From Escherichia coli (GTDB lineage Bacteria > Pseudomonadota > Gammaproteobacteria > Enterobacterales > Enterobacteriaceae), in NCBI RefSeq assembly GCF_041886205.1, contig NZ_CP169029.1: a stretch of DNA of 64,000 bases, one strand, 5' to 3'. Positions 53,167-55,073 of the stretch are shown one piece after another (position 1 is the first letter of the stretch; each line of letters begins with the position of its first letter). Made by a program: the position numbers and the translations under genes. The notes under the pieces were generated by a model, which saw only the letters and a program-made list of their open reading frames with translations, did no database searches and had not been told where the DNA came from.

Positions 53167-53430
53167 TCAGGCGCGGATTTGTTGTGATGTGGTTGTGCTC
53201 TGGCAGATGGCAACGTGTGCGACGTCCACCAGTTTATTTAACTGACTAAACAGTAAGTCGACCGACCGTGGGCTGGCAACGGTCAATTCGATATTTATAT
53301 TTTGTGCATCGCTGGCGGCGGCCATATTCATTGAGCAGACGTGGAAACCACGATGACGCACCACGCGTAAAACACGTTCTAAGGTTTCTGGATTGAAGCG
53401 AGCCGATACATTGACCTGATGTTGCATCAT
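53167..53430 (-). CDS. ilvM: Acetolactate synthase II small subunit IlvM
   Basis: 87 aa; overlaps ilvG stop by 4 nt. Confidence 0.9.
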
Positions 53431-55073
53431 GATAATTTCTCCAACATTTCTGAATTACTGGCACCAGGCGGCACCAGCGGCCAGACGTTCTCAAGTTCGT
53501 CGATTGAGACATGAAGCAGGTATGGCCCATCACTGTTCAGCATGGTGTCGAGTGCCGCTTCAACCTGGTCTTTACGGGTGATGTGTTGGCCAGGGATGCC
53601 GAAGGCGCTGGCTAACATGAGGAAATCGGGGTTATCAGTAAGGGTGGTTTCGCTGTATCGTTCCTGAAAAAACAGTTGCTGCCATTGTCGAACCATCCCT
53701 AACCGTTGGTTATCGAGTAAGACGATTTTCAACGGTAACTGCTTGCGTTTTACGGTGCCCAGCTCTTGCACATTCATCATGAAAGAGCCGTCACCGGAGA
53801 TACAGACAACGGTATCGTTCGGTCGCGCGACTTGTGCGCCAACCGCCGCCGGTAAACCAAAACCCATGGTACCTAAGCCGCTGGAGGTGATGAAATTTTC
53901 CGGGCGAGTGTGGGCGATGTGCTGCGCAGCCCACATCTGGTGCTGCCCCACATCTGTGGTCACGACGCAATCCGCAGGTTTACGATCCGACAGTTGTTTT
54001 AACAACAACGGCGCGTAGATAGCGTCACCGGGATGGTCGTAACGCCAGGCATGTTCATCACGCAGCTGCGCGCAGTGTCGCTGCCAGTCATTGATATTTA
54101 ACGGCTGCTGTAATGCTGGTAACAGAGCATTTAAATCACCTTGTAATGCCACATGTGCCTGACGCAGCTTGTTCATTTCTGCCGGGTCGATATCCATATG
54201 GATAACACTGGCGTGTGGTGCGAAGGTGTTCAGTTTGCCGGTCACCCGGTCATCAAAACGTGCACCCACGGCGATCAGCAGGTCGCACTCCTGCACCGCG
54301 AAGTTTGCCGCTTTGGTTCCGTGCATCCCCAGCATCCCCAAATAGTACGGATAATCTGCTTCTACTGCGCCCAGCCCTTTCAGCGTACAGGTGGCAGGCA
54401 TTTTTGTGGCAGCGAGAAATTCACGCAAAGCCGGAACTGCCTGCGCCATGCCCACGCCACCGCCAACGTACAGCATCGGTTTTTGCGCTTTTGCCAGCAT
54501 CTGGCGCGCTTGCTCAACTTCGGCATGTGGGAAGGTCACTTCGTTTTCAACGGTGGTGAACCACGGTTCCAGGTCACCGCTGGCTAACTGGATATCTTTT
54601 GGGATATCGACCAGAACCGGACCAGGACGACCTGAGCTGGCAACGTCGAATGCTTCAGCCATGATGCGCGGCAACTCTTCCAGCGACTGCACCAGAAAGC
54701 TGTGCTTGGTACAGGCTAACGACAATCCCAGGACATCCACTTCCTGAAATGCGTCAGTGCCGATAAACGGTGCGGACACTTGACCGGTGATGGCAACAAC
54801 AGGGATAGAATCTAACAGTGCGTCCGCAAGCCCGGTTATCAGGTTGGTTGCGCCCGGACCAGACGTGGCGATACATACGCCAGTTTTGCCGGTAGCACGG
54901 GCATAACCGATAGCCGCCATTGCCGCACCCTGCTCATGTCGGCACAGCAAGTGCTCCACGCCGCCGTCATACAATGCATCGTAAACCGGCATAATTGCGC
55001 CACCCGGATAACCGAAAACGGTGTTCACACCCTGTGCCCGCAACGCATGTACCACCCACTGTGCGCCATTCAT
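53427..55073 (-). CDS. ilvG: Acetolactate synthase II large subunit IlvG, full-length (548 aa, uninterrupted)
   Basis: Single uninterrupted 548-aa frame with ThDP-binding region; [25 protein letters not shown]. Confidence 0.95.

Follow-up and report, generated by a model that had tools for sequence, protein, structure and literature searches.

Since 1981 it has been known that ilvG of Escherichia coli K-12 carries a frameshift, with valine sensitivity and polarity on ilvEDA as its consequences. The gene concerns acetohydroxyacid synthase II (AHAS II), which is the isozyme without feedback inhibition by valine; AHAS I, with its large subunit IlvB, is the valine-sensitive isozyme. IlvB of E. 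coli (PDB 6LPI) is also the closest solved structure when the PDB is searched with the IlvG sequence studied here (E = 1.5e-161, residues 2-544), a search that gave no near-identical AHAS II chain. Both proteins share the fold family and the reaction, but IlvB belongs to the other isozyme, has IlvN and not IlvM as its partner and is encoded in the ilvBN operon. For MG1655, a study of evolved strains describes that the frameshift creates a premature UGA in the gene of the valine-insensitive isozyme AHAS II (PMC8605374), and the link between the K-12 frameshift and valine sensitivity is drawn there as well as in a second paper (PMC3446290). In the strains B, W and Crooks, ilvG is described as intact (PMC3446290, PMC3032704), and genome papers routinely remark on the intact gene in strains other than K-12.

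Here we compare these systems with the ilv locus in the window, by which we mean the whole analysed stretch of 64,000 nucleotides. With a probability of about 0.95 the segment derives from a natural E. coli other than K-12 and represents its wild-type ilvLXGMEDA operon, in which ilvG encodes the full 548-aa catalytic subunit of AHAS II and ilvM its small subunit. For a textbook locus this is the usual wild-type condition, and it is already known. The finding matters very little beyond confirming a natural non-K-12 source with a normal ilv operon.

The ilvG reading frame and its operon

In the ORF listing, the gene at 53427..55073 is one ORF of 548 aa that starts with ATG and has zero internal stops. 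At the base composition of ilvG itself, a stop-free run of 548 codons has a chance of only ~1e-10. The initial annotation had claimed such a single uninterrupted frame, without stating that it lies on the minus strand, together with a 4-nt overlap of ilvM with ilvG, and both claims hold. The raw sequence reads ATGA at 53427-53430, so that the ATG at which ilvM starts (53430-53428) overlaps the TGA that ends ilvG (53429-53427). A GGAG motif is located 9 nt upstream of the ilvM ATG, within ilvG.

The encoded protein scores 1075.3 bits with NF006524, the NCBIfam equivalog for the acetolactate synthase 2 catalytic subunit, whose curated cut-off is 738 bits, and residues 1-547 cover the profile positions 1-547 of 548. 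Pfam finds TPP_enzyme_N (PF02776) at residues 1-115, TPP_enzyme_M (PF00205) at 186-321 and TPP_enzyme_C (PF02775) at 374-522, each time over the whole profile. The three-domain architecture of a thiamine diphosphate (ThDP) enzyme is hence complete, with the N-terminal Pyr domain, the central domain of the FAD-binding type and the C-terminal PP domain. We also see Glu47 within RHEQGA and the GDG...DN element at 427-456. By what is established for ThDP enzymes, the former is the glutamate of catalysis by which ThDP is activated and the latter is the GDG-X(n)-N motif for ThDP/Mg2+ binding. PGAP names the product of the identical gene in seven other genomes "acetolactate synthase 2 catalytic subunit". 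Profile, domain architecture, motifs and operon context all place the protein in this family, and the gene is ilvG. The features of the locus are collected in Table 1.

Table 1. Features of the ilv locus in the window, with their positions, strand and the basis of each assignment.
Feature	Position	Strand	Basis
5' leader RNA of the whole ilv operon	55093..55382	-	Rfam RF02744 (Rev39_5p_UTR)
ilvL leader peptide, 32 aa, Ile/Val/Leu-rich, MTALLRVISLVVISVVVIIIPPCGAALGRGKA	55213..55311	-	ORF; identical to K-12 b3766
ilv attenuator, G+C-rich terminator hairpin followed by U8	55156..55198	-	RNA fold -23.3 kcal/mol, z = -4.3; identical to K-12
ilvX, 16-aa small ORF, its end 2 nt upstream of the ilvG ATG	55076..55126	-	identical to K-12 b4669
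ilvG, intact catalytic (large) subunit of acetolactate/acetohydroxyacid synthase II, 548 aa	53427..55073	-	single ORF, NF006524, Pfam
ATAT run, gene nt 976-979, codons Asn326-Ile327; one AT missing in K-12	54094..54097	-	pairwise alignment with b4488
ilvM, small (regulatory, ACT-domain) subunit of AHAS II, 87 aa	53167..53430	-	ORF; NF008362 133.9 bits (cut-off 68 bits); Pfam ACT_5
ilvE, branched-chain amino-acid aminotransferase, intact, 930 nt	52218..53147	-	differs from K-12 at 17 nt and 0 aa
ilvD, dihydroxy-acid dehydratase, intact, 1851 nt	50303..52153	-	differs from K-12 at 47 nt and 3 aa
ilvA, threonine deaminase, intact, 1545 nt	48756..50300	-	differs from K-12 at 13 nt and 0 aa

The K-12 pseudogene b4488 occupies the same locus, and leader, attenuator, ilvX and ilvM are identical between K-12 and the window. 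Indeed, every base from the ilvL ATG to the ilvG ATG agrees with K-12, the ribosome-binding regions included, and ilvM shows no nucleotide difference at all. The leader RNA matches RF02744 over model positions 1-300 of 300 with 157 bits (E = 2e-48), where the gathering score is 88. A simple terminator scan of the minus strand did not report the attenuator, the stem of which has an internal mismatch; direct folding recovered the hairpin. Further upstream, about 10 substitutions relative to K-12 are clustered in the promoter region before ilvL (55312-55480, minus strand).

From what is established for ilvGMEDA, we would expect the full-length ilvG to provide the thiamine-diphosphate/FAD-type catalytic subunit of AHAS II, and ilvM, translationally coupled to it via the ATGA overlap, to provide the small subunit. 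The source strain should be able to grow on minimal medium containing valine, because AHAS II is not inhibited by this amino acid. The polarity on ilvEDA, which is caused in K-12 by the premature stop, would be absent in this strain, and expression of the operon is predicted to be under attenuation at ilvL that depends on isoleucine, valine and leucine.

The site of the K-12 frameshift

The MG1655 annotation has ilvG (b4488, formerly ilvG_1/ilvG_2) as a 1645-bp pseudogene, and with its 1647 bp the gene in the window is 2 bp longer. A global alignment of the two gave 18 substitutions and one 2-bp gap at 98.9% identity. The frameshift in the K-12 reference, which the initial annotation had named, is thereby real and can be located to 54094-54097. 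At this site the window reads TTA AAT ATC AAT GAC TGG (L-N-I-N-D-W), while K-12 reads TTA AAT CAA TGA (L-N-Q-stop); the corresponding stretches are TTAAATATCAATGAC in the window and TTAAATCAATGAC at the K-12 counterpart. The K-12-type allele, with the AT deletion at codons 326-327 and TGA at codon 328, is not present in the window, and neither the same frameshift nor the premature stop is found in its ilvG. The K-12 translation ends with ...PLNQ and the stop at codon 328, just past the central domain, so that nothing of the C-terminal ThDP-binding domain (374-522) is left. Apart from the AT deletion in ilvG, the 52.6-kb alignment with K-12 contains no uncompensated indel within a coding sequence that is otherwise intact. 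The exact position of the K-12 lesion is useful for annotating the window.

According to the genome paper on E. coli W, the lesion in K-12 ilvG consists of "two separate base pair insertions" (PMC3032704). Our comparison of seven alleles disagrees with this wording, since against each of the other alleles K-12 shows one deletion of 2 bp.

The first alternative to be weighed is that the DNA comes from a K-12 strain whose ilvG had regained its frame, by spontaneous reversion to valine resistance or by engineering to ilvG+. Such strains do exist: in evolved MG1655, deletions of one base at or near the TGA were reported to restore the frame and to allow growth at 1 mg/ml valine (PMC8605374). These one-base events fit a lesion of -2, because -2 and -1 sum to -3. 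It follows that spontaneous revertants, which take a further -1, end up with a gene of 1644 bp and not with the ancestral 1647 bp, while the lesion site in the window is exactly the species-wide AATATCAAT. In addition, the 18 further differences in ilvG are accompanied by 1.4-3.2% divergence over the flanking 61 kb and by a 2567-bp insertion that K-12 lacks. We consider this origin extremely improbable; the divergence alone rules out a repaired K-12 as the source.

Intact ilvG among complete E. coli genomes

We queried 5426 complete E. coli genomes with the whole gene and obtained a match in 5425 of them. The search returned 5431 ilvG matches altogether, one of them on a record classed as a plasmid. 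An identical gene (100% identity) is found in seven complete genomes, with pig, pigeon, poultry, human and bear as hosts. To count the two states of the lesion site we used exact 76- and 78-mers across the junction. The 76-mer with the K-12 junction is present in 340 of the 5426 genomes, a number that gives the exact K-12 junctions and not a full census of ilvG inactivation, and the remaining matches mostly span 78 nt, which is the intact state. Between about 350 and 530 genomes had no megablast match to the short junction queries; presumably, SNPs close to the site interrupt the 28-nt seed there. Among the 340 carriers of the K-12 junction, the 60 that were listed all bear names of K-12-derived laboratory strains (60/60), for example MG1655, C600, J53, DH5alpha, DH1, HMS174, RR1 and ER strains.

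The opposite picture is obtained outside this group. All five diverse non-K-12 genomes that we fetched have an ilvG of 1647 bp that is annotated as intact, while a K-12-type O16:H48 genome has its ilvG annotated as "frameshifted". IlvG of the non-K-12 strains B, W, Crooks, ATCC 25922 and others has the same 548 aa, the same position in the operon and the same ATGA coupling to ilvM as the protein in the window. The nucleotide identity of the window gene to the sampled non-K-12 alleles is 95.6-100%, which is allelic variation only. Intact ilvG is therefore the default of the species and K-12 is the exception, with ~94% of the complete genomes lacking the K-12 junction.

These counts also bear on the possibility that the open frame is an artefact of assembly or sequencing that hides a real indel. 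Miscalls do occur in general at short repeats like ATAT, a consideration with nothing specific to this site, but the identical 1647-bp sequence is present in the seven independent complete genomes, and the same intact 78-nt junction is common to thousands more. The probability of such an artefact verges on nil.

One genome deviates in another way. In NCCP12480 (NZ_CP068680.1, around position 1026835), the match to the junction probe ends after its first 41 nt, and the features at this place are "thiamine pyrophosphate-binding protein | ilvA". This suggests a natural deletion that extends from the middle of ilvG to ilvA, by which a shortened ilvG seems to be fused next to ilvA.

Allele variation and the source of the segment

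The 18 substitutions that separate ilvG of the window from K-12 are divided into 14 synonymous and 4 non-synonymous changes, as expected under purifying selection. Compared with the frame-repaired K-12 protein, the window has S146 in place of C, R332 in place of Q, A342 in place of S and P494 in place of H. In the comparison of seven alleles, only K-12 has C146 and H494, and these two changes (S146C and P494H) in the K-12 pseudogene would fit a relaxed selection after its inactivation. R332, on the other hand, is private to the allele of the window and absent from the other six. The residue is located in the linker between the central and the C-terminal domain, where positions 322, 328, 333, 342 and 343 vary between strains too.

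One could ask if the frame is open and the enzyme is nonetheless inactive or unexpressed, either by Q332R or by the substitutions in the promoter region, so that the strain would be valine-sensitive anyway. The private nature of Q332R among the seven alleles and the several SNPs upstream of ilvL speak for this, but residue 332 falls into a linker that is variable between strains, the same gene is maintained unchanged in seven complete genomes from the various hosts named above, and the leader, the attenuator, ilvX and the ribosome-binding regions are identical to K-12. Furthermore, the surplus of synonymous over non-synonymous changes (14 to 4) indicates that selection continues. We regard a silent or inactive gene as very unlikely. 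A slimmer chance still is given to a milder version, in which the allele with Q332R and the promoter-region substitutions differs from standard AHAS II in its activity, its association with the small subunit or its expression; nothing that we observed points in this direction. The reading as a wild-type operon with an intact AHAS II gene, against which no direct evidence speaks, is the one that we keep for the segment.

Concerning the origin of the DNA, the window is collinear with K-12 positions 3,941,632-4,003,035 in reverse orientation. The identity to K-12 amounts to 98.6% over 11428-64000 (52.6 kb) and to 96.8% over 1-8860, and between these two parts, at 8861-11427, the window carries the insertion of 2567 bp relative to K-12, which is placed between cyaY and lptM (yifL). 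Based on these identity values and the insertion, we infer that the source is a non-K-12 E. coli, and this divergence is far stronger evidence than the intact ilvG. The initial annotation had proposed a non-K-12 source from the intact gene together with an insertion at yifL-cyaY. The insertion is there and the proposed source stands, with the 18 SNPs in ilvG pointing the same way. One qualification concerns the use of ilvG+ as a mark of background. Since the K-12 junction is missing from ~94% of the complete genomes, an intact ilvG says only "not K-12" and marks no particular background.

The nearest genomes, wlxctx60, LHM10-1 and CP52E, show 99.9% identity over the last 24 kb of the window, and no perfect match to these 24 kb was found among the complete E. 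coli genomes. The 2567-bp insertion is present in 1583 of the 5426 complete genomes, where it is mostly annotated as hypothetical, and the copy in strain LHM10-1 is 100% identical. Its ORFs at 8674-10182 and 10179-11501, both on the plus strand, are overlapping paralogues of 502 and 440 aa with weak matches to the DKNYY family (PF13644). In hemX, an in-frame insertion of 18 bp relative to K-12, (TGCACC)x3, is found at 17684-17701 and looks like a copy-number variation of a tandem hexamer. Finally, the divergence from K-12 is distributed very unevenly along the window. The first 2 kb, in the yigF/yigG region, contain 150 differences (~7.5%), and two 2-kb bins in the wecA-rho-trxA region (36000-40000) contain 5 and 0. 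This pattern suggests a history of mosaic recombination or a very strong constraint.
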